DNA of 64,000 nt from Eubacteriales bacterium. Its GTDB lineage: Bacteria; Bacillota; Clostridia; Oscillospirales; CAG-272. Of this stretch, positions 40,641-54,511 are shown piece by piece (within the stretch, counting starts at the first letter, position 1; each line of letters starts with the position of its first letter). The notes below the pieces were generated by a model that was not told the DNA's origin, searched no databases, and saw only the letters and a program-made list of their open reading frames with translations. A program made the position numbers and the translations under genes. The stretch is taken from NCBI GenBank assembly GCA_045649925.1, contig JAZRQS010000040.1, forward strand, positions 1,499-65,498. The letters are read 5' to 3'.

Positions 40641-40654
40641 ACGTACTGTATTTT

Positions 40655-40737
40655 ATATTGAGCAAAATCGGTGAAAGCCGATGACGCAAAGCAAAGAGGC
40701 TAAGGTTTTTTACTATGCCAGTCCAGCTGCAATGATA
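40655..40737 (+). ncRNA. GEMM-I / c-di-GMP-I class riboswitch aptamer (A20 variant)
   Basis: GAGCAAA-ATCGGT-GAAA-GCCGAT-GACGCAAAGC...GCTAA...ATGC...CAGCTGC matches the GEMM-I consensus (GNRA tetraloop, tetraloop receptor, C44/A47/C92 equivalents). Confidence 0.92.
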
Positions 40738-43870: not shown

Positions 43871-44601
43871 GCATTCCAAAGGTGATACACTACTGCTGGT
43901 TTGGTCACGGAAAAATGCCCGCAATAGCCGAAAAATGTATAAAGAGCTGGAAGAAATACTGCCCCGACTATGAAATTATCTGCTGGAATGAAGAAAACTT
44001 CGACATTATGCAAAGCCGATACATGAGAGAGGCGTATGAGGCAGGGAAGTGGGCGTTTGTCAGCGATTTCGCAAGACTGAAGATTATATACGACCACGGC
44101 GGAATATATCTCGACACCGACGTTGAGCTTATCAAGTCGCTTGACCCTTTGCTCGACTATGACGGCTTTATGGGCTTTGACGAGAAGGGCATCGTTGCCA
44201 CAGGTCTTGGCTTTGGCGCAGAGGCAGGGAATGAGATAATAGCCTCGCTTCTGGAGGACTACGAGGATTTGCCGTTTGTTTTGGAGGATGGTAGCTTCGA
44301 CACCACCCCTTGTCCCGACAGAAATACGAGCGCATTAAAGCGTATCGGTATGGACACCGAAAACACCGACCAGATATTCAGGGGAATGAAATTCTTGCCA
44401 CAGGATTACCTTTGCCCGATGGATTTTTACACAGGCGTAAAGACGATTACGAAAAACACTTATTCCATTCACCACTACTGCGCATCTTGGACCTCCGATG
44501 TTACAAAGAGGACCACACGTATCAAGCGCATTATAGGAGTGAAGATGTATAATAAGCTTTATGGCAAGTTTTTGCACAAATTTAAGGGGTTGGAGTGGTA
44601 A
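43867..44601 (+). CDS. GT32 (DXD, Och1-like) glycosyltransferase
   Basis: IPKVIHYCWFG, SDFARL, GGIYLDTDVE, HHYCASW. Confidence 0.92.
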   Translation: MSIPKVIHYCWFGHGKMPAIAEKCIKSWKKYCPDYEIICWNEENFDIMQSRYMREAYEAGKWAFVSDFARLKIIYDHGGIYLDTDVELIKSLDPLLDYDGFMGFDEKGIVATGLGFGAEAGNEIIASLLEDYEDLPFVLEDGSFDTTPCPDRNTSALKRIGMDTENTDQIFRGMKFLPQDYLCPMDFYTGVKTITKNTYSIHHYCASWTSDVTKRTTRIKRIIGVKMYNKLYGKFLHKFKGLEW

Positions 44602-44602
44602 T

Positions 44603-46150
44603 ATGCCGGAAACATTGTTCATAAAAATGAAAGAGAATATAAAGCCTCAATGGAAGGTGTGCTTTATCTTTTCATTGATTGTCGGGCTTATCACTCATAT
44701 GTACAAGCTCACAAGCTGGCTACCAAACTGGGATTCGCTCGTCTTCCGTTATGACGGACAGAATATGCTGGCGATAGGCAGATGGTTTTTGCCTGTGGTG
44801 TGCGCCCCCTCGTCGTTTTATGATTTGCCGTGGGTGGCAGGGTTGCTCGCACTTCTGCTTCACGCACTTGGCGCAGTATGTATATGCAGAATGTTTTCAG
44901 TCGAGAAAAGCACGACATCGGCGCTTATCGGTGCGACAGTTATAGCATTCCCGACAGTAACGTCGGTTTTGACATACAACTATGTCGCTGACGGCTATGC
45001 ATTCGCATTTTTGCTCTCCTGCCTTGCAGGTATGCTCCTTGTGGAGAAAAAACCGAGATATATCGCCTCTGCTATCTGTATCACGCTTTCTGCAGGCATC
45101 TATCAGGCATATGTGACTGTCACTGTTATGCTCTTGCTTTGCTACTTGATTACAGAGGGCATCAGGAAGGATACAAGGGTAATTACACTTGTAAAGAAAA
45201 CTTTACAATTTCTTGCGACAGGAATTGTCGGCATGGTGCTTTACTATGTGATAATGAGGCTCGCTCTCAAGCTCACACATACAGAGCTTTTAGAGTATCA
45301 GGGCATAAGCGGAGCGCTTTCGCTTTCGCTTTCGAGCATGAATATTTTCGCCTCGCTTTATACTGTAAAGACCTCCTTTGTGGAGTATTTCTTCGATTTT
45401 TCAAACGGCGCTTCAGTTTTTTCAGTATTGAACTGTGTTATATTGGTGCTTACTGTTGTGTTGTATATTTTCGATATAGTAAAAAACAGGACAAGCCTCC
45501 CCAAGCTTTTGATTATCGCTTTTTGCACGATTATGCTCCCCATAGGTGCGAGCGTGCTTGCATTTATAAACAGCGACGTCGACTATCACAACCTGATGAA
45601 AATGGGATTTGTCGTCTTTTATCTGTTTTTGATATTGCAGTATGAAAAGCAGGACTTCAAGAGCGAGAGGCTGAACGCCATAAAGGCGTGGGGAATACTC
45701 GCAGTCGTTTTTGTGCTTGTGTTCAACTATGTTATAATTGCCAATGTCAGCTACCACAAGCTGAATATGGCGTATGAAAAGTCATACGGAGTGCTTGTGC
45801 GCATTGCAGACCGCATAGAGCAGACAGAGGGCGCATCAGAGTGTGAGAGAATTCTCGTTGTCGGCGCACTCGATAACAGCGAGCCGTATAGTGTAAATCT
45901 TCCCCCCGATATGACGGGCACCACCGACGGCTTTATACTGAGAGCTGACGATGAGGTAGTGGGACAGAGTGTTTTGTGTAGCGCATTGAATGATTACTGT
46001 GGAACTGACTACACGTTTGTATATGGTGACGAAAAGACTGCGCTTGTCGAAAGGGCGGACGAGATGGGCATGGGGCTTTGGCCTGCTTCTGATTCTGTCG
46101 CTGTCATAGACGGAGTTATCGTCATTTATCTCGGAATGGAGGGCCGTTGA
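44603..46150 (+). CDS. GT-C fold membrane glycosyltransferase (GtrII / Glucos_trans_II-like)
   Basis: About 10 TM; NWD...IGRWF loop, IYQAY, C-terminal extracellular domain. Confidence 0.75.
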   Translation: MPETLFIKMKENIKPQWKVCFIFSLIVGLITHMYKLTSWLPNWDSLVFRYDGQNMLAIGRWFLPVVCAPSSFYDLPWVAGLLALLLHALGAVCICRMFSVEKSTTSALIGATVIAFPTVTSVLTYNYVADGYAFAFLLSCLAGMLLVEKKPRYIASAICITLSAGIYQAYVTVTVMLLLCYLITEGIRKDTRVITLVKKTLQFLATGIVGMVLYYVIMRLALKLTHTELLEYQGISGALSLSLSSMNIFASLYTVKTSFVEYFFDFSNGASVFSVLNCVILVLTVVLYIFDIVKNRTSLPKLLIIAFCTIMLPIGASVLAFINSDVDYHNLMKMGFVVFYLFLILQYEKQDFKSERLNAIKAWGILAVVFVLVFNYVIIANVSYHKLNMAYEKSYGVLVRIADRIEQTEGASECERILVVGALDNSEPYSVNLPPDMTGTTDGFILRADDEVVGQSVLCSALNDYCGTDYTFVYGDEKTALVERADEMGMGLWPASDSVAVIDGVIVIYLGMEGR

Positions 46151-47058
46151 TGGTATATTATTGTGCCGATGATTACGGCATTTCCAAGGAATACAACAGA
46201 TGTATAGAGCAATGCCTTAGGGAAGGCATACTCAACAAGGTCAGCGTGTTGCCAAACGGAGAGATAGAGGACTTTGTGGAAAAGCTCAACTGCAAGGAGG
46301 GCGTTATGCTGACCCTGCATCTCAATATAGTGGAGGGCTATCCCTTGTCACCTAAAGAGGATATAGATTTGCTCGTTGACGAAAACGGGTGCTTCAAGTG
46401 TTCGTTTGTGGGACTGTTTTTGAAAGGATTTTCACCCAAGCGCAAGGAGTATGAGAAGCAGATGTATAAAGAAATACGAAATCAGCTTCGCTTCTGGGTG
46501 GAAAAAACGGGCGACAGATGCATTTCCGTCGACTGCCATCAGCACGCCTACGAGATACCATGGATATTCAAGACTTTGATGCAGGTCATTCGTGACGAAA
46601 AGCTTGACGTAAGGTATCTGCGAATCCCCGCGGAGCCTATTCGTGCCTACCTTCGTGTGCCGTCACTCTACAAGGCTTATAGCGTGACAGGGCTGATAAA
46701 GCAATGCCTTTTGAAGACACTCGCATTTATAAATCGCAGATACTTACGCGATATGGATTTCACATCTGCGCACTTTATGGGAGTTATGCTGTCGGGAAAA
46801 TTAAACCGAGAGCGTGTAGATAAGCTTTTGGGATATTACCTCTACCTTTCAGAGAAGAACAAGAGAAACATAGAGGTCGCATTCCACCCCGGCTATGCGC
46901 AACATGACCTTGAGCTTATTTCGGGTAGCAGAGAGGATTTCAAAAAGTTCTATTGCTCACCTTGGCGAAACCTTGAATATGAGGCTCTTATGAACAGCTC
47001 GCCTCAAAACGATATAAAAACGACAGAGAAGAAAGGGAACGAAAATGCCATATCTTGA
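46147..47058 (+). CDS. YdjC/ChbG/HpnK-family deacetylase
   Basis: ADDYG, LHLNI, DCHQH, FHPG. Confidence 0.88.
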   Translation: MMVYYCADDYGISKEYNRCIEQCLREGILNKVSVLPNGEIEDFVEKLNCKEGVMLTLHLNIVEGYPLSPKEDIDLLVDENGCFKCSFVGLFLKGFSPKRKEYEKQMYKEIRNQLRFWVEKTGDRCISVDCHQHAYEIPWIFKTLMQVIRDEKLDVRYLRIPAEPIRAYLRVPSLYKAYSVTGLIKQCLLKTLAFINRRYLRDMDFTSAHFMGVMLSGKLNRERVDKLLGYYLYLSEKNKRNIEVAFHPGYAQHDLELISGSREDFKKFYCSPWRNLEYEALMNSSPQNDIKTTEKKGNENAIS

Positions 47059-47725
47059 AAAAGAAAAAGTCGATGAAAAAACAAGAAAAAAGCTGGAGGC
47101 GCTGATAGAAAAATCATACTCCGGCTACTGGAAGAAAAAGCGCCTTTTCGACATATTTTTTGCTACGATAATTCTGCTCGGATTTCTTCCGCTGATGGCA
47201 ATTATCGCCCTCGTTATCGTCATTGACGATCCGAGCGCAGGCCCGTTTTTCAAGCAAAAGCGTGTCGGTCGTCACGGCAAGGAGTTCTATATGTATAAAT
47301 TCCGTACGATGCGACCGGATGCGGAGCAGCTCCTCGATCAGCTCAAGGATCAGAACGAGATGGAGGGCCCTGTATTCAAGATTAAGCACGATCCGAGAAT
47401 TACGAGAGTGGGAAAAATCCTTCGTAAGCTCTCGCTTGACGAGCTTATGCAGTTCTTCAACGTGTTCAAGGGAGATATGACACTTGTAGGTCCTCGCCCC
47501 CCGCTTCCTCGTGAGGTCGAGTACTACACCGACTACCAGAAGCTCCGTCTGCACGTCACCCCCGGAATTACCTGCACATGGCAGATTTCCAAAAACAGAA
47601 ACGACATTCCCTTCGAGGACTGGGTTGAGATGGACCTCGACTACATACAAAACAGAACCTTCCCCGGCGACATTCTCATCATGCTCAAGACACCCATCGT
47701 AATGCTGAGCGCTACCGGAAGATAA
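47045..47725 (+). CDS. Priming phosphoglycosyltransferase (Bac_transf)
   Basis: KRLFDI, FYMYKFRTM, DPRITRVG, SLDEL, LVGPRP, PGITCTWQ. Confidence 0.95.
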   Translation: MPYLEKEKVDEKTRKKLEALIEKSYSGYWKKKRLFDIFFATIILLGFLPLMAIIALVIVIDDPSAGPFFKQKRVGRHGKEFYMYKFRTMRPDAEQLLDQLKDQNEMEGPVFKIKHDPRITRVGKILRKLSLDELMQFFNVFKGDMTLVGPRPPLPREVEYYTDYQKLRLHVTPGITCTWQISKNRNDIPFEDWVEMDLDYIQNRTFPGDILIMLKTPIVMLSATGR

Positions 47726-47758
47726 ACTTGCCATATTGGATTAGATTGGAGAAAAGAA

Positions 47759-49867
47759 ATGAAAATTGCTATGATAGGACACAAGGTTGTCCCGTCAAGA
47801 CGTGGTGGAATTGAAAATGTTTTGACTACCCTGTGTCCCTTGCTCTCGGAAATGGGTGCAGGTGTTGTCTGCTACAACCGCACCTCCGATGAAATAGAAG
47901 CCGATTATCTCGGAATGGTGGACAACAATCAGTATAAGGGTGTTACCTTGAAAAAGGCGTGGACTATAAAGTCGAGAGGAATTTCGGCTATGATAGCCTC
48001 CTTTACTGCCGCTATCCGTGCCGCATTCGGAAAATACGACGTCGTACATTTTCACGCCGAGGGGCCCTGCGCGGCTATGTGGATACCCAGAATGTTTGGA
48101 AAGAGATGCGTTGCGACTGTTCACGGACTTGACTGGCAGAGAGAAAAGTGGGGCAAGAGCTTCGCCTCCAAATATATCAAGTTTGGCGAGCGTGTGATGG
48201 TAAAGTGCGCAGACGAGATCATCGTATTGAGCGAAAGCGCCCGAGAGTATTTTATGAATACTTATAATCGTGAAACCACACTTATTCACAACGGAATTGA
48301 ACGCCCTGAAAAGAAGTCAGCCGAGGAGATTACCGAGCTCTACGGACTTGAAAAGGACGGATATATCTGCACTGTGTCGCGACTTACTGCAGAAAAGGGC
48401 ATACACTATCTCATCGACGCCTACAACAATATAAAGACGGACAAGAAGCTCGTTATCGCAGGCGACACGAGTGACACCGACGAATATGTAGCCTCCTTGA
48501 AGGAAAAGGCAGGCGACAACCCGAATATAATCTTCACAGGATTTATTTCAGGCGCACCTCTTAGGGAGCTTTACAGCAACGCATATGTGGTTGCCGTACC
48601 CTCCGACATTGAGGGAATGTCGCTCAGTCTGCTGGAGGCGCTCGCATATGGAAACGCTGTGCTCAGCTCTGACATTCCCGAAAACACCTTGGTCACCGAG
48701 GACAGAGCGATGCACTTCGAAAAGGGCAACGTGTCTGACCTCACAGAAAAGCTTCAGCTCCTTTGCGACGACGAGGACCTCGTTAACTCGATGCGTGACG
48801 GCGTTGACGAATTTATTCTCGAAAAGTATAACTGGAATGATGTTGCAGACAGCACCTATCGTCTGTATCACTCATTGATAAAGCGCATAAAGCGTGGACT
48901 CTTTGCAAAGATAAGAGGCACAAAGGCAGAGCAGAGACTGAAGACTGCTTTCCTCTCTGTCGTTACTGCACTCTTTGTCGTTGTCGCCCTGTCAATTGCC
49001 GTTATCGGCTTCAGCCATCTTGGAAACCGAAATTTCACAGAGACGTTTTATAGCGTCAGCAGTCTAAAGGTCAACAACAAGATAAGAGTAATACAAATCT
49101 CCGACCTGCATGGTTGCACCTACGGAGAAGAAAACAGCGACCTTGTCAGCAGAGTAGAAAAGCTCTCGCCCGATATTATTTTGCTCACAGGCGACACTAT
49201 CGGTGACGATGCTTCTATTGACGAGGTAGTCGGGCTCTGCGCTTCTCTTGCGCAAATCGCCCCCTCCTATTACATATACGGAAACAACGAACTGGAAAAG
49301 TATTACCCCACGCTTCTTACACAGGAGGCGCTTGACAGCCATTTCGGCTTCACCGATGAAAACCGAGATGCCACTCAGCTTCTCGCTATGACCGACACCC
49401 TTGAAGAAATGCTTGAGGCAGTCGGCGTTACAGTGCTCAAAAACGAGAGCGCTACCCTGACAGTAGGCAAGACGCCCGTAGATATTTACGGCGTGCTTAC
49501 GTCAAACCCGTCTGCATTCTGGTCGTATGGCGGAGAGAGCTTCAGCGACTTTCTCTATGTAGACGAGACACACCTGAAGATAACTGCTATCCACGAGCCT
49601 CTGGTATTTGAGGAATTCTCACCTGACTTCTGGGGCGACGTTATGCTTGCCGGTCACACCCACGGAGGCGTGGTAAGAGTGCCTGTGCTTGGCGCACTTT
49701 ACACCCACGAGGGCGGGCTCCTTCCCGCACGAGCAGGACACTATGTCTACGGCAGATACGAGGTGGAGGGCAGACCTCTCATAGTTTCCTCAGGTCTTGA
49801 AAACAAAAACATTTTCAGAATCAACAACGAGCCTGAAATAGTCGTTGTTGACATCAACAAATTCTGA
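47759..49867 (+). CDS. GT4 glycosyltransferase fused through a TM helix to a calcineurin-like metallophosphoesterase
   Basis: N-terminal GGIE, PSDIEGMSLSLLEA; TM near aa 400-420; C-terminal SDLH, TGD, GNNE, HEP, GHTHGG. Confidence 0.88.
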   Translation: MKIAMIGHKVVPSRRGGIENVLTTLCPLLSEMGAGVVCYNRTSDEIEADYLGMVDNNQYKGVTLKKAWTIKSRGISAMIASFTAAIRAAFGKYDVVHFHAEGPCAAMWIPRMFGKRCVATVHGLDWQREKWGKSFASKYIKFGERVMVKCADEIIVLSESAREYFMNTYNRETTLIHNGIERPEKKSAEEITELYGLEKDGYICTVSRLTAEKGIHYLIDAYNNIKTDKKLVIAGDTSDTDEYVASLKEKAGDNPNIIFTGFISGAPLRELYSNAYVVAVPSDIEGMSLSLLEALAYGNAVLSSDIPENTLVTEDRAMHFEKGNVSDLTEKLQLLCDDEDLVNSMRDGVDEFILEKYNWNDVADSTYRLYHSLIKRIKRGLFAKIRGTKAEQRLKTAFLSVVTALFVVVALSIAVIGFSHLGNRNFTETFYSVSSLKVNNKIRVIQISDLHGCTYGEENSDLVSRVEKLSPDIILLTGDTIGDDASIDEVVGLCASLAQIAPSYYIYGNNELEKYYPTLLTQEALDSHFGFTDENRDATQLLAMTDTLEEMLEAVGVTVLKNESATLTVGKTPVDIYGVLTSNPSAFWSYGGESFSDFLYVDETHLKITAIHEPLVFEEFSPDFWGDVMLAGHTHGGVVRVPVLGALYTHEGGLLPARAGHYVYGRYEVEGRPLIVSSGLENKNIFRINNEPEIVVVDINKF

Positions 49868-49887: not shown

Positions 49888-51246
49888 ATGCTTTCTTCAA
49901 TTTTGCAGAAAATCCCATTGCTCGTTGTCGGCTTGCTTTTGCTTATCGCAGTAATAACGATATACATTCGCTCCAAGCGTGTGACAAAGAGCGAGTCGTT
50001 CAAAATATTCAAGAGCGTAAAGCCACTTACTGTATGGGTATTGGTGTTTACCATAGTGCTTACGGGCGTGTTTGCAGTATTCAACCACGTGAAATCAAAG
50101 CAGTATATGATGGCTGTGGTGGCGCTGAACTATTCCGAGGCGTCCCAAGCGCAGAATACAAACGGCACGAGATTCAATATGACGGAAATCATCTGTGACG
50201 AGGTTATCGAAAGAGCCATCAAGCTCGGCGCATTTGAGGATGTCACAGTAGAGGAGCTTCGTGAGTGTCTTTCTGTCTATCCCTATGTTCAGGGTGATGT
50301 AAACGATGAGTCGAATTATCACATCTCTACTGAATTTGTCGTAGAATACTTCGCATCAAAGGATACAGCCCACCTCGATTCTGAAAATGTCATTATGCTT
50401 ATCACAAGCGCATATAAGGACTATTACATAGAGAAATATACAGACAATTTCAGCCTTACAGGCGACTCGGAAAAGCCCGATTATTCAAAGATGGAGTATA
50501 TGGACGTAGTAGCGTATTTCAGCAAGGAGGCGACCTCCGTGCTCAACTATATGTACGGCATGGCAGAAAAGGCCCCCAGCTTCGTCACCTCGGGCAACAT
50601 TTCCTTCAGCTCCATTGCAGGTAAGATATATCAGTTTAAAGAGACACAGATAGAGCAGAATCTGAGATCCCTTATTTTGCAGTATGGTCTTGTAAGAGAA
50701 GAGCAGACCTACCTTGAAAGACTTAACTACCAGAACCAGAACATAGACTTTACAAAGCAGAAAAATGTCGCTTCGTTTAATATTTGCAACGAGACTGTCG
50801 GTATGTACTCCGACGATATGACTCGTGTAGTTCTCGTCCCCACGAGAGACGCCGAGGGCAAGTATTATATGAGCAGGACAAAGGTCGGCATTGACGAGAT
50901 CTCCGTCTTGGCTACTACATTCAGCGACGCCATCGCAGAGAATGAAAAGGAGCTTATGAGCAACAGCCTCATTATTGAGAAGATACAGAATTCAAGCAAC
51001 ACAGCTCAGTACGCTTTACAGGCAGACGCTCTCATTCTTGCGATAGACAAGACGCTAGACGCCCTGACAGTAGAGGCGATAACGGCAGGTCGAGAGTATT
51101 CTGACTACAAGATGAATCAGTGTATTGCAGTCAGCATTTCTGACGGGTCACTGTTCAACGAGCTGAAAATGATAGTCGCGTTTGCCGTCATTGCCTACGT
51201 TTCGGCGATGGCATACGAGCTGTCAAGAAAATACCCGAAAGTATAA
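49888..51246 (+). CDS. Wzz/CpsC-like polysaccharide co-polymerase (extra N-terminal TM)
   Basis: TM-TM-large helical extracellular domain-TM; NY...NGTRFNMTEI motif shared with the next gene. Confidence 0.6.
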   Translation: MLSSILQKIPLLVVGLLLLIAVITIYIRSKRVTKSESFKIFKSVKPLTVWVLVFTIVLTGVFAVFNHVKSKQYMMAVVALNYSEASQAQNTNGTRFNMTEIICDEVIERAIKLGAFEDVTVEELRECLSVYPYVQGDVNDESNYHISTEFVVEYFASKDTAHLDSENVIMLITSAYKDYYIEKYTDNFSLTGDSEKPDYSKMEYMDVVAYFSKEATSVLNYMYGMAEKAPSFVTSGNISFSSIAGKIYQFKETQIEQNLRSLILQYGLVREEQTYLERLNYQNQNIDFTKQKNVASFNICNETVGMYSDDMTRVVLVPTRDAEGKYYMSRTKVGIDEISVLATTFSDAIAENEKELMSNSLIIEKIQNSSNTAQYALQADALILAIDKTLDALTVEAITAGREYSDYKMNQCIAVSISDGSLFNELKMIVAFAVIAYVSAMAYELSRKYPKV

Positions 51247-51266: not shown

Positions 51267-53162
51267 ATGAAAAGCTTACAATTCATGAGATATCTGAAAA
51301 AGATTCTCCCGTTCATTATCATTGTCTGCGTTTTGGCGACCTTCGTCATCAACTACAAGCTCAAGGGCTCAAATACCTATGTTGCATCTGAGATTATTCA
51401 CTACAATGACACTCAGACAGAGCTTGGAATTACACCTACAGGCGAAAAGTTTGATGTAAATGAGATAAAGTCATCTGCCGTTGTTTCCAAGGTGGTAAAC
51501 AAGCTCGGACTTACAGGCACATATTCGGTGGATAGCCTTATTTCAAGAATTTCGATAACCGCCATTCCCGACGAGGACAAGCTCGCTCAAAAGGAAGCCA
51601 AGCTCAAGGAGGGCGAGTCCTACATATATGAGCCAAGCACGTATGTAGTATCCTTTACTGCTACGAATAGCGAGGGCGCTGTATTTGCGAGGACTATTCT
51701 CGACGAGGTGCTTGACGTCTATTTTGCAGAATACAGTCAGAAATATGTAAATGTAGCTCCTGCGCAGAATATAATCGATAATATCGAAAACGGAAATTAC
51801 GATTATATCGAAATGGTGGAGCTGATAGACACAGGTATAAACGAGACCTTGAACACTCTCTATCAGAGAATGTCGCAAAATCTCTACTACAGAGGAACAA
51901 AGACAGGCGTTTCCTTCAACGACCTTGCAGACGAGTTCAATTACTTGAGACAGGTTACACTCTCAGGACTGTTTGCAAAGATATACAACTATCAGGTCAC
52001 AAAGGATAAGACCGTCCTTATTTCCGACTATAAGACAAGAATTGACAACAATAATATACAAGCGGCGACAGAGGAGAATATCGTAAACAACACACTCGCC
52101 ATCATCGACGCCTACGTCGACAAGATGAGAGAGTCGGGAAATACGAATATTTCCTCCGAGTACATTCTCGACAGCGTGCACGACAGTAGCGTCGATGGCG
52201 CGGGAAATCCCACAAATGCGGGCGACCAGACAGTTACATATGATGCGCTCCTCTATAGCTGGAGAGAGCACAGCGAGGCAAAGGAGTATCTTCTTATAGA
52301 TACCGCATACTCGCAGTATGTTATAGACGTGTTCACAGAGTGCACAGGTGCATGTAATAACGGCGAATGCCGTACCTCACCTCTTACCTGTACAGAGCTC
52401 AGCAATGCTGACTACGCTACAGTCAGGGGCGAGATAGAGGCTGATATAAAGACGCTTGTTGATGACTTGGCAGAGCTCTATGTTTTGACGAGAGCTACAA
52501 ACGATGAGTACAACTACTATCTCGGCGCAAGCTACATTTCGGTGCTTTCCTCTGCTTCTGTCAAGGAGAGCGTAAACGTAAATCTCTACACATTCATTGC
52601 ATTTTTCTTCCTCATATTCGTATGCTGTGGAGGCGCTATTATTCTCGGCAGACTTGGCGATGTAGTTCATTATGTATTCTACACCGACCATATCACCGAG
52701 TTCAACAACCGCGCATTCTTCGACAAGCTCCTCTCGTCTATGGATAAGAAGATACTTGACGACGGAACTGTTTACTGTACTGTCGATATAGCAAATCTGG
52801 CTGGCATAAACGCCACCTGCTCACGTGAGACAGGCGACGGCATTATCAAGATGTTTGCTAAATACTTGAAGGAAACATACGGAAAGTCGAATGCCGAATT
52901 TATCTACAACGGAAACGGTAGCTTCGTAATTCTTTCAAAGCACACAGACTATATTTCTATCGAGGATATACTTCGCCTGTTTGCATTGAAGCTGGAGGAG
53001 AGAGAAGAGTATCGCAACATTGCAATAGAGTTCAGCGTGGGTATTGCCGAGACCTTTGAGGGCAAGCAGACGGCGAGAAGGCTTCTCGCAGAGGCTATAA
53101 AGAGCAAAAAGACATACGTGTCCGGCGCTGATACAGAAAACAAAGAAAACGAAGAAAACTAA
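51267..53162 (+). CDS. Wzz-like co-polymerase with a C-terminal degenerate GGDEF domain
   Basis: TM-extracellular-TM, then TDHITEFNNR, VDIANLAGIN, TGD, YNGNGSF (in place of RxGGDEF), FSVGIA. Confidence 0.75.
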   Translation: MKSLQFMRYLKKILPFIIIVCVLATFVINYKLKGSNTYVASEIIHYNDTQTELGITPTGEKFDVNEIKSSAVVSKVVNKLGLTGTYSVDSLISRISITAIPDEDKLAQKEAKLKEGESYIYEPSTYVVSFTATNSEGAVFARTILDEVLDVYFAEYSQKYVNVAPAQNIIDNIENGNYDYIEMVELIDTGINETLNTLYQRMSQNLYYRGTKTGVSFNDLADEFNYLRQVTLSGLFAKIYNYQVTKDKTVLISDYKTRIDNNNIQAATEENIVNNTLAIIDAYVDKMRESGNTNISSEYILDSVHDSSVDGAGNPTNAGDQTVTYDALLYSWREHSEAKEYLLIDTAYSQYVIDVFTECTGACNNGECRTSPLTCTELSNADYATVRGEIEADIKTLVDDLAELYVLTRATNDEYNYYLGASYISVLSSASVKESVNVNLYTFIAFFFLIFVCCGGAIILGRLGDVVHYVFYTDHITEFNNRAFFDKLLSSMDKKILDDGTVYCTVDIANLAGINATCSRETGDGIIKMFAKYLKETYGKSNAEFIYNGNGSFVILSKHTDYISIEDILRLFALKLEEREEYRNIAIEFSVGIAETFEGKQTARRLLAEAIKSKKTYVSGADTENKENEEN

Positions 53163-53200: not shown

Positions 53201-54511
53201 ATGGAAACGGAAAATAAATACGTGCGCATAGTCGGAAAGGCGTACTTTATGGCTGTCGCTGTGCTTATGTACTATTTTCTCACACAGGTAATACAGCTTG
53301 GAATATTCGTCACATATCGACACGCATTTGCCCTCGTCCTGTTTTGCTCGGCGTTTGTAGTCTTTTTATACAAGCCGAACATAGCGCGAGGAGTCGCATC
53401 ACTCAAGGCGACTCTCGTTTACTGCGCTCCACTTATCGTGACGGTGGTTGCATCACTGCTCATATGGTTTGTCGGGCAGGTCGACACATCGGTCATTGCG
53501 AGAGGATTATCAGCAACTTTTGTTTACAATAATATGATTTCCTTCACTCTCGCATCTGTTGCATTCCTTTACATCTTTGGCGAAAAGGGAATGTGGTATA
53601 ACCTTGTCGCTATACTTATTGCGAACATTATGATGATTTTGACTATCATAGCGCAAAACGGAATAGGCGTGTTTCTTTCCGAGCTTGTGACGCTTGTCAT
53701 TACCTTTGCAGGACAGACGGGTGACGTCATTGTACAGGCGGAAATACACGAGCTTGCGTTCTGTCTCGGAGCTTACCTCGTGTATATGCTCCTAAAGCCA
53801 CGGCGTGACGCAGTTTATTTCATATTGCTCGGTCTTACCTCGTTCTGCTTTATAGTAGCGTTCAAGCGTATCGGTATGATAGCCATTGCGCTTGCCTTGG
53901 CGTTTGGCTGGGGGCTCAAGCTTATAGCAAAATTGAAAAAGGATATGGCGTCACGTCTGGTGACCATATTCACTATCCTTCTCGTGCTTGTCCTGATAGG
54001 CTATGTTGCCATTATCAAGATGGACGTATTCACGCTTATAGAAAAGGCGGGAATTGACACGAGCGGACGAGTGGTAATTTACAACGCCGTTGATAAATTT
54101 TATGAATTTTCACCCGAGTTTTTAGGAAATGGTATAGGATTTCTGACATACCAGCTCAGCACCAATATGAATGTCGGCGTAAACTCGGTGCACAACGACT
54201 TTTTACAGTATTTTATCGACCTCGGCTTTTTTGGATATATTTTCTGGCTCCTTTCCATGACAGTTTTGAGGGTTTCCTATTTCGGAGCAAGGGGAAAGAC
54301 GGAAAATGCGATAATCACATTCGCTCTGACTGTGTATCTCGTTATCGTTTCCTCTACCGATAATACTCTTAACTACCCTCTGCTCACGACCGTGCTGGGT
54401 GTAATTATGATAGGTCAGGGCTTTGACGAGCGTGTAAGACATGCTGAGACAAAGCTGTTTGGATATATTTCCGATGCAAACAAAAATACAGGAGGTAACT
54501 CTCTCTTATGA
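53201..54511 (+). CDS. wzy: Wzy polymerase / O-antigen-ligase-family membrane protein
   Basis: About 11 TM; KR..., TSGRV.IY, LGNGIG, VHNDFLQYFIDLGFFG (Wzy_C motif). Confidence 0.8.
   Translation: METENKYVRIVGKAYFMAVAVLMYYFLTQVIQLGIFVTYRHAFALVLFCSAFVVFLYKPNIARGVASLKATLVYCAPLIVTVVASLLIWFVGQVDTSVIARGLSATFVYNNMISFTLASVAFLYIFGEKGMWYNLVAILIANIMMILTIIAQNGIGVFLSELVTLVITFAGQTGDVIVQAEIHELAFCLGAYLVYMLLKPRRDAVYFILLGLTSFCFIVAFKRIGMIAIALALAFGWGLKLIAKLKKDMASRLVTIFTILLVLVLIGYVAIIKMDVFTLIEKAGIDTSGRVVIYNAVDKFYEFSPEFLGNGIGFLTYQLSTNMNVGVNSVHNDFLQYFIDLGFFGYIFWLLSMTVLRVSYFGARGKTENAIITFALTVYLVIVSSTDNTLNYPLLTTVLGVIMIGQGFDERVRHAETKLFGYISDANKNTGGNSLL

Follow-up and report, generated by a model that had tools for sequence, protein, structure and literature searches.

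Among the calcineurin-like phosphoesterases of the COG1408 family, the only member of its branch with a genetically defined role is UpsH (YpbG) of B. subtilis, a metallophosphoesterase with one hydrophobic N-terminal segment that becomes essential once teichuronic or teichoic acid precursors linked to undecaprenyl diphosphate (Und-PP) are trapped, and that restores the pool of undecaprenyl phosphate (Und-P) by freeing it from Und-PP-linked polymers while not acting on lipid II (PMC11898649). Replacement of either histidine of its GHxH motif (H202A, H204A) gives null behaviour, and its catalytic domain, in a protein recovered from both soluble and membrane fractions, is cytoplasmic as judged by protease protection in protoplasts (PMC11898649). 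YkuE, in contrast, is exported to the cell wall by the twin-arginine translocation (Tat) pathway, and polytopic YkuE-like proteins are predicted to have their domain outside (PMC5449189), so that the family holds both orientations. LpxH, another membrane-associated calcineurin-like enzyme, cleaves the pyrophosphate diester of UDP-2,3-diacylglucosamine (PMC5016852). Here we describe a gene in which a metallophosphoesterase (MPE) is fused behind a glycosyltransferase of family GT4, together with the conserved exopolysaccharide (EPS) locus around it, in a window of 64,000 nucleotides (the whole stretch of DNA analysed) from contig JAZRQS010000040.1 of a Eubacteriales bacterium, an uncultured gut member of the Clostridia (assembly GCA_045649925.1). 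The mechanism by which EPS is released in Gram-positive Wzy pathways is unknown where it is not ligated to peptidoglycan by LCP enzymes (2025 review, PMC12220298), and we found no paper in the literature on a GT4-metallophosphoesterase fusion or on a Wzy-type EPS locus with its own dedicated phosphoesterase.

Our preferred reading, to which we would assign a probability of roughly 45%, is that the Und-PP-polymer linkage is hydrolysed by the MPE at the outer leaflet, which sets the polymer free and regenerates the carrier. The cytoplasmic GT4 half would act right after the priming phosphoglycosyl transferase (PGT), probably adding the second sugar to Und-PP-sugar, while the MPE half, tethered by a transmembrane (TM) helix and facing outside, would attack the pyrophosphate diester of the Und-PP-linked polymer; the products would be Und-P and a polymer with a reducing-end phosphate. 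We favour this reading because of the chemistry of UpsH and LpxH, the diester-type variant of the active site, the absence of an LCP ligase from the cluster (the single LCP gene of the genome lies on another contig) and the recurrent fusion of the MPE to parts of the polymerisation and chain-length machinery. Recognition by the MPE of the Und-PP-proximal sugars that PGT and GT4 install would account for its linkage with both, although this is speculation. When the locus was first interpreted from its letters, without database searches (hereafter the sequence-only reading), recycling the lipid carrier and releasing the polymer were listed among the possible roles of the esterase, and these gain support from UpsH (PMC11898649).

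The gene is one open frame encoding a GT4, a basic linker, one TM helix and an MPE (Table 1). The frame is single and the linker contains no in-frame ATG, as had been proposed from the letters, and the succession of a complete GT4, a basic linker, a single TM helix and a calcineurin-like domain is borne out by Pfam, hydropathy and AlphaFold2. The GT4 half matches Glyco_transf_4 at residues 16-181 (70.9 bits, cut-off 28.5) and Glycos_transf_1 at residues 198-346 (89.4 bits, cut-off 26.4), and its EX7E motif is intact (E285-GMSLSLL-E293), with E285 kept in at least 90% of alignment A1. A Foldseek search with the full model returned GT4 structures only, GlgM (6tvp) being the best (E 7e-18) and followed by MshA, BshA, PimA and PglA, with TM-scores of 0.7-0.8 normalised to the target. 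In the other half, PF00149 (Metallophos) matches residues 442-635 with 32.6 bits against a cut-off of 21.5, and the metal-ligand motifs are complete when read directly and aligned, the ligands being invariant across the subfamily (D449/H451, G478-D479, N509, H612-E-P and H633/H635). The sole deviation is the change of the GNH histidine to N510, next to the metal-ligand asparagine N509, which is retained; the sequence-only reading was thus correct in describing DLH, GD, HEP and GHTH as intact, with GNNE in place of GNH(D/E).

Profile matches point to the COG1408 (YaeI/YkuE/UpsH) branch of the calcineurin-like superfamily for the MPE half. The best NCBIfam phosphoesterase model, PRK11340 (YaeI), covers both anchor helix and catalytic domain (residues 408-699 against profile positions 15-270, E 2.5e-16, 59.9 bits); the protein is the only one of YaeI type encoded in the genome. 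It also matches the LpxG model NF033458 (E 3.6e-12) without being a member (46.2 bits, cut-off 350). Compared with UpsH by its published description, the MPE shares a single hydrophobic helix N-terminal to the domain, the conserved GHxH and a putative tie to Und-PP-linked polymers, but UpsH is a stand-alone protein of the SigM stress regulon with a cytoplasmic domain, whereas the MPE described here lies in a dedicated EPS operon, is fused in this genome, has GNNE and has a predicted outward orientation. With YkuE and its polytopic relatives, some of which are tethered by helices N-terminal to the domain (PMC5449189), it shares the family and the predicted extracytoplasmic location, but those proteins have a twin-arginine motif and use Tat, and the linker of the fused protein has no RR. 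LpxH and LpxG resemble it as membrane-associated enzymes that cleave a lipid-linked sugar-pyrophosphate diester (PMC5016852); they differ in working at the cytoplasmic face, in lipid A synthesis and in Gram-negative bacteria.

The orientation of the MPE is central to this proposal. A hydropathy scan of the 702-aa protein finds exactly one membrane-type segment, at 393-423 (Kyte-Doolittle peak 2.86), flanked by nine lysines or arginines (K/R) in the 25 residues on its N-terminal side and by four on its C-terminal side, and AlphaFold2 (143-row alignment, mean pLDDT 85) models a continuous helix from residue 389 to residue 422 that joins two globular domains. Comparable layouts are found in other lineages, where the same MPE family is fused to a non-orthologous GT4 (P0188, P0153), to a GT2 (P0167, GT2-TM-MPE, 639 aa), to an acyltransferase (P0174, Acyl_transf_3-TM-MPE, 680 aa), to a Wzz-GGDEF protein (P0220, L095:7001-9754, joined to the MPE via a third TM helix) and to an SGNH domain (P0239, TM-MPE-SGNH/GDSL, 676 aa). 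Wherever the MPE is C-terminal in such fusions, exactly one hydrophobic segment separates it from the preceding domain, and that domain is either obligately cytoplasmic (GT4, GT2, or GGDEF after the second TM helix of Wzz) or the last helix of a polytopic acyltransferase. In these independent fusions the segment has 4-7 K/R on its N-terminal side and 1-2 on its C-terminal side, a bias also present in 104 of the 123 family representatives with an anchor helix. No RR pair occurs in the linker IKRIKRGLFAKIRGTKAEQRLKT, and an RR motif lies near the helix in only three of those 123 representatives. Given the charge bias and five independent fusions to obligately cytoplasmic domains, the MPE is predicted to face outward; a GT4 inside and an MPE outside is the only layout consistent with the helix, the positive-inside bias and the independent fusions, and we infer, in agreement with the sequence-only reading, that this is how the protein is arranged.

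Alternatively, the MPE might face the cytoplasm, held by an interfacial or re-entrant anchor, and serve as a pathway-dedicated quality control that frees Und-P from stalled PGT/GT4 Und-PP intermediates. UpsH provides the precedent, as a COG1408 protein with a single hydrophobic N-terminal segment that is protease-protected and present in soluble as well as membrane fractions (PMC11898649), and the gene order PGT-GT4-MPE puts the MPE beside the builders of the Und-PP-proximal end. The segment, however, comprises 23 uncharged hydrophobic residues within a straight 34-residue helix with the charge bias of an N-in orientation, the single-helix layout recurs after GT4, GT2, GGDEF and the last Acyl_transf_3 helix, and the bias of the relatives counted above is signal-anchor-like, so that we regard a cytoplasmic MPE as unlikely.

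The fused gene lies within one long same-strand operon that spans about 40.6-61.3 kb and is headed by a cyclic di-GMP (c-di-GMP)-I riboswitch. The operon starts with a gene for an EAL protein, followed by one for a hexapeptide acyltransferase and one for a protein of about 12 TM helices, probably Wzx; continues with GT32, GtrII, YdjC, the priming transferase (Bac_transf), the fusion, a 452-aa membrane protein that we call u452, a Wzz-like protein with a GGDEF domain (Wzz-GGDEF) and Wzy; and has, downstream of Wzy, one GT4 gene, three of GT2 type, a further EAL gene and an Acyl_transf_3 gene. Besides the riboswitch it contains two EAL genes and, in addition, two GGDEF proteins. Gram-positive loci normally have a BY-kinase partner where the Wzz-like protein here ends in a degenerate GGDEF domain. 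Synteny was counted in 48 related loci with full flanks, and the order GT32-GtrII-YdjC-PGT-GT4-MPE-u452-WzzGGDEF-Wzy is kept in 46-48 of them, the priming transferase, u452 and Wzz-GGDEF each being present in all 48 and Wzy in 46. A GT4 lies directly upstream of the MPE in all loci, although these were retrieved with peptide patterns from the phosphoesterase only. The conserved unit is a Wzx/Wzy operon under the control of a c-di-GMP riboswitch and comprising PGT, GT4, MPE, u452, Wzz-GGDEF and Wzy.

Two of the independent fusions show which of these genes travel with the MPE. The fusion P0188, which aligns with the query only from residue 198 onward (30% identity) and has a longer linker and GNHE, is followed by a u452 homologue (28% identity, E 9e-48), Wzz-GGDEF, Wzy, an Acyl_transf_3 gene and a GT2, and P0220 stands in the order Wzy, GT4, u452 homologue (27% identity, E 2e-28), Wzz-GGDEF-MPE. 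Because both loci hold the same neighbours, the MPE is co-inherited with u452, Wzz-GGDEF and Wzy and not with one particular transferase. The protein u452 matches no Pfam or NCBIfam family (at E<=1, NCBIfam gave nothing usable for it or for a 499-aa protein without assignment), and it is likely to be a core partner of the MPE and Wzz-GGDEF.

In the sequence-only reading the GT4 comes after the priming transferase and probably contributes the second sugar, a view consistent with the adjacency of PGT and GT4 in all related loci. The same adjacency is seen in a Clostridium perfringens capsule locus, where an orthologous GT4 (61% identity) comes directly after the priming transferase and is accompanied by a classical Wzz and a BY-kinase; this supports a role for the GT4 in the step after priming. 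Position directly after the priming transferase is also what the GT4 shares with DUF1972-containing glycosyltransferases of the WchF/Cps2T type, which add the second sugar onto Und-PP-sugar; it also has a weak DUF1972 match (38 bits) and a Cps2T match (E 8.8e-24), but differs from them in score, with 84 bits against an equivalog cut-off of 500.

Considered as a whole, the locus is a candidate for a pathway-dedicated and probably outward branch of COG1408, and its conservation extends over at least 75 clostridial species from gut and rumen. It is tempting to go further and to propose, though this is doubtful, that this subfamily supplies the terminal enzyme still missing from Gram-positive Wzx/Wzy EPS pathways, an outward UpsH-like hydrolase within a u452/Wzz-GGDEF/Wzy complex that would cut the finished chain off Und-PP and return Und-P without UppP. 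If so, its recurrent fusion, once to the c-di-GMP-related Wzz-GGDEF, would mean that release is coupled to chain-length control. In either form the proposal makes the question of EPS release testable, with a defined candidate, predicted products (polymer-1-phosphate and Und-P) and a natural GNN versus GNH variant.

This variant is not a peculiarity of the fused gene, as the sequence-only reading had implied: the change from GNH to GNN is present, but it is fixed across the subfamily, GNNE being found in every locus with a readable motif, split or fused, and GNRE in one fused member. An exhaustive HMMER search with the phosphoesterase domain found 9048 relatives at E<=1e-3 among 1.84 billion representative proteins, and among the best 150 of these motif III reads GNHE in 89, GNNE in 37 and GNHD in three, with GNDE, GNRE, GNTE and GNKE appearing sporadically; at 44-46% identity, GNHE and GNNE members lie intermixed. 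GNNE is thus a trait of the subfamily, acquired on more than one occasion, and not a lesion of the fused gene. A separate set of relatives at 33-41% identity (P0147, P0148, P0152, P0155, P0158, P0178, P0180, P0200 and P0245) has lost several metal ligands, with motifs such as SDLNG, GDSE and GGRLGG, and these are probable pseudo-phosphoesterases that have kept the fold and the length class.

What the substitution might do can be judged from better-known enzymes. In CthPnkp, His264 is needed for the Mn-dependent monoesterase and 2',3'-cyclic phosphodiesterase activities, and its replacement in H264N and H264A raises activity on acyclic diester and phosphonate substrates; H264A retains 10% of the cyclic phosphodiesterase activity, of which H264N restores little (PMC2190708, PMC4320098). 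MJ0936 has a natural Asn at this position and is a diesterase only that does not cleave cyclic nucleotide monophosphates (cNMPs), and YfcE has a Cys there (PMC2190708, PMC4320098). In LpxH the residue is always an Arg, which binds the beta-phosphate (PMC5016852). The earlier statement that loss of this histidine shifts such enzymes from monoesterase towards diesterase activity is therefore supported by CthPnkp H264N/A, MJ0936 and YfcE, alongside the invariant Arg of LpxH. By analogy, the natural GNN variant would suit a monoanionic diester or anhydride centre and not a monoester or a cyclic nucleotide. MJ0936, YfcE and CthPnkp H264N share with the MPE the replacement of the phosphate-contacting histidine by Asn or Cys, and the first two are diesterases without monoesterase or cyclic-nucleotide activity; all three differ in being small, soluble cytoplasmic enzymes of other subfamilies, and they are a chemical precedent only.

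An outward phosphodiesterase need not act at the lipid anchor, and the MPE might instead edit the polymer itself, at a phosphodiester substituent or at sugar-1-phosphate links of the backbone. The preference of GNN variants for acyclic diesters would fit such an activity, the wall compartment is where exported PhoD and YkuE-type proteins work, and PptH and Mre11/SbcD, the best-matching folds for the MPE, are phosphodiesterases. Among the genes scanned between 38.3 and 63.4 kb, however, there is no LicD, TagF/CDP-alcohol or LtaS/EptA-type phosphotransferase (two proteins there have no family), and the recurrent fusions are to parts of the assembly machinery and not to decoration enzymes, Acyl_transf_3 and SGNH excepted. 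We think polymer editing improbable, a shade more so than the cytoplasmic arrangement. The next possibility, that the MPE acts locally at the outer leaflet as an Und-PP phosphatase and recycles carrier set free by Wzy, would be in keeping with a membrane-anchored, predicted outward protein adjoining Wzy-pathway genes, but a canonical UppP/BacA is encoded elsewhere in the genome, the locus is accessory (carried by two of the 37 species of the genus) and dianionic terminal phosphates are disfavoured once the GNH histidine is lost, all of which leaves it with only a small chance of being right. Hydrolysis of c-di-GMP in the regulatory layer of the operon seems very unlikely: although the operon has the riboswitch and the EAL and GGDEF genes listed above, and Rv0805 and CpdA of the same superfamily are cNMP phosphodiesterases, the MPE is predicted to lie outside the cell, dedicated EAL enzymes are already present, and the replaced histidine is a determinant of cyclic-nucleotide hydrolysis (CthPnkp H264A/N, MJ0936).

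Several considerations weigh against release of the polymer by an outward MPE. The main caveat is that UpsH, the only characterised close analogue, has a cytoplasmic catalytic domain by protease protection and hence the opposite topology. An outward Und-PP-glycan hydrolase would also need some means of sparing lipid II and nascent chains. The interleaving of GNHE and GNNE members means that the His-to-Asn substitution may matter little, and the GT4 does not need the MPE, in that its C. perfringens orthologue works in a capsule locus with no phosphoesterase. The YaeI-model match, moreover, is far below the equivalog cut-off of 188 bits and marks a relative, not an equivalog. A phmmer search of the PDB with the phosphoesterase domain gave nothing at E<=1, so that there is no close solved structure, and with the phosphoesterase-only model (pLDDT 71, poor in its C-terminal third) the best Foldseek matches were PptH, Mre11/SbcD, TT1561 and Lmo2642 at TM-scores of about 0.4; these weak matches confirm the MPE fold and give no functional neighbour.

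The fusion itself is genuine and selectively maintained. A search for the same domain architecture, as the sequence-only reading had suggested, was run at the protein level over 5.8 billion proteins and found 26 fused full-length homologues of 698-703 aa and 72-78% identity in NCBI, ENA and Logan assemblies. A congeneric genome, G006 (one of the 36 other species of the genus), has the same fused frame without a stop at 78% identity, and when a tree was built from the phosphoesterase domain, all but one of the 28 fused rows (27) grouped in a single clade (SH-aLRT 97), which has diverged by about 25% and is for this reason taken to be old as well as maintained.

It is nevertheless the exception. 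One genome per GTDB species was scanned with two peptide patterns, both within the phosphoesterase domain, which yielded 150 related stretches, and loci were counted in the best 80: 74 are split, with adjacent genes for a GT4 and a TM-phosphoesterase, one is fused (the congener G006) and five are truncated, so that 74 of the 75 complete species loci encode GT4 and MPE as two genes. The two genes often overlap by 4 nt or are separated by fewer than 25 nt. The species concerned are Clostridia from gut and rumen, uncultured and assigned to Acutalibacteraceae, Oscillospiraceae or 'Clostridia bacterium', and the split arrangement is found in the syntenic contig L012 and, within the order, in three further families; stand-alone GT4 orthologues reach 78% identity as separate genes in other species. 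The fusion is thus a rare derived state of a conserved gene pair, and the gene pair and its locus are more interesting than the fusion.

How the frames came to be joined can still be read. In the nearest split relatives the GT4 ends ...KKVLKK-stop within TTG AAA AAA TAA AAG AAA GG, and the MPE starts 19 nt downstream in the +1 frame, which is open across the 19-nt spacer and reads KNKRKVAYVMKG. The linker of the fused gene, IKRIKRGLFAKIRGT, aligns without gaps to this read-through, LKNKRKVAYVMKGYT, with the former start methionine of the MPE corresponding to K386; because of this alignment the linker is taken as the translated relic of the old GT4 stop, the Shine-Dalgarno sequence, the spacer and the MPE start codon. 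Loss of the GT4 stop codon led to reading through the spacer and to the fused gene, and the fusion would mainly fix a 1:1 stoichiometry and keep the hydrolase within the assembly machine. As a 'Rosetta stone' case it links two proteins functionally, with a mutational origin that is legible in the sequence.

In three split loci (L033:1585-1775, L056:5066-5256 and L034:5066-5256) the GT4 stop lies within an A-run, and the MPE frame (+1) is open just past an overlapping TGA. Loss of one base at this A-run would join the frames, and a metagenomic fragment outside the fused clade, P0049, reads exactly so (...KKVLKNKRKVAYVMKG...); it is a second fusion, by a one-base indel, or possibly an error in that contig. 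No stimulatory element for programmed +1 frameshifting was seen at the A-run of the split species. That the fusion in our window is itself an artefact of assembly or sequencing, a lost stop or a homopolymer indel in the contig, is extremely improbable: most relatives are split and a one-base indel at their GT4 stop would fuse the frames, as in P0049, but 27 distinct clusters from independent assemblies have the same fused frame and form one clade, the linker has diverged and is free of homopolymer runs and of remnants of a stop or start codon, and the congener is fused at 78% identity. The sequence-only reading had named separate genes in close relatives, together with an artefactual fusion, as what would overturn it; the separate genes are found and the artefact is not.

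Table 1. Features of the fused gene and of its operon, in positions of the window.
Feature	Position	Strand	Evidence or remark
c-di-GMP-I riboswitch, upstream of EAL gene	40651..40734	+	Rfam RF01051, 60.4 bits, gathering score 35
Priming polyprenyl-phosphate hexose-1-phosphate transferase (Bac_transf), directly upstream of the fusion	47045..47725	+	PF02397 E 8e-64; TIGR03025 EPS_sugtrans E 1.8e-77
Shine-Dalgarno GGAG	47748..47751	+	7 nt ahead of the ATG of the fusion; read directly
Fused GT4-TM-MPE gene	47759-49867	+	One open frame, 702 aa
GT4 domain, residues 1-375, GT-B fold, predicted cytoplasmic	47759..48883	+	Pfam PF13439, PF00534 above cut-offs
Basic linker, residues 376-392, IKRIKRGLFAKIRGTKA...	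48884..48934	+	Alignment to spacer read-through of split relatives
Single TM helix, residues 393-423, hydrophobic core TAFLSVVTALFVVVALSIAVIGF	48935..49027	+	Hydropathy and AlphaFold2
Calcineurin-like binuclear MPE domain, residues 424-702, COG1408 type, predicted extracytoplasmic	49028..49864	+	PF00149, PRK11340
Motif I, D449-L-H451, metal ligands	49103..49111	+	Invariant in alignments A1 and A4
Motif III variant, G508-N509-N510-E511	49280..49291	+	Read directly
Motif V, G632-H633-T-H635	49652..49663	+	Invariant in alignments; equivalent of the UpsH His pair
u452, 452-aa membrane protein, TM helices at both ends, large predicted outside domain	49888..51246	+	Directly after the MPE
Wzz-like co-polymerase with degenerate C-terminal GGDEF (NGNGSF)	51267..53162	+	GGDEF E 6.5e-10; TM 6-35, 434-468
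Wzy-type polymerase	53201..54511	+	PF04932

Other parts of the locus vary among the relatives. About a third of the split phosphoesterases, among them P0098, P0117 and P0121 (417 aa; e.g. L057:5125-6384), have an N-terminal extension of about 100 aa with no Pfam match, which precedes the anchor helix and is predicted to be cytoplasmic. The pair of GtrII (GT-C) and YdjC deacetylase genes (44561-47058, + strand) is found in most loci and behaves as an optional cassette, since L012, L042 and L077 lack it at the place where GT32 and the priming transferase adjoin. The priming transferase is 99% identical to that of the congener (L013:3295-3975 against 47045-47725 here), whereas the flanking operon genes are 68-84% identical, which suggests recent recombination or unusually strong constraint on this gene.

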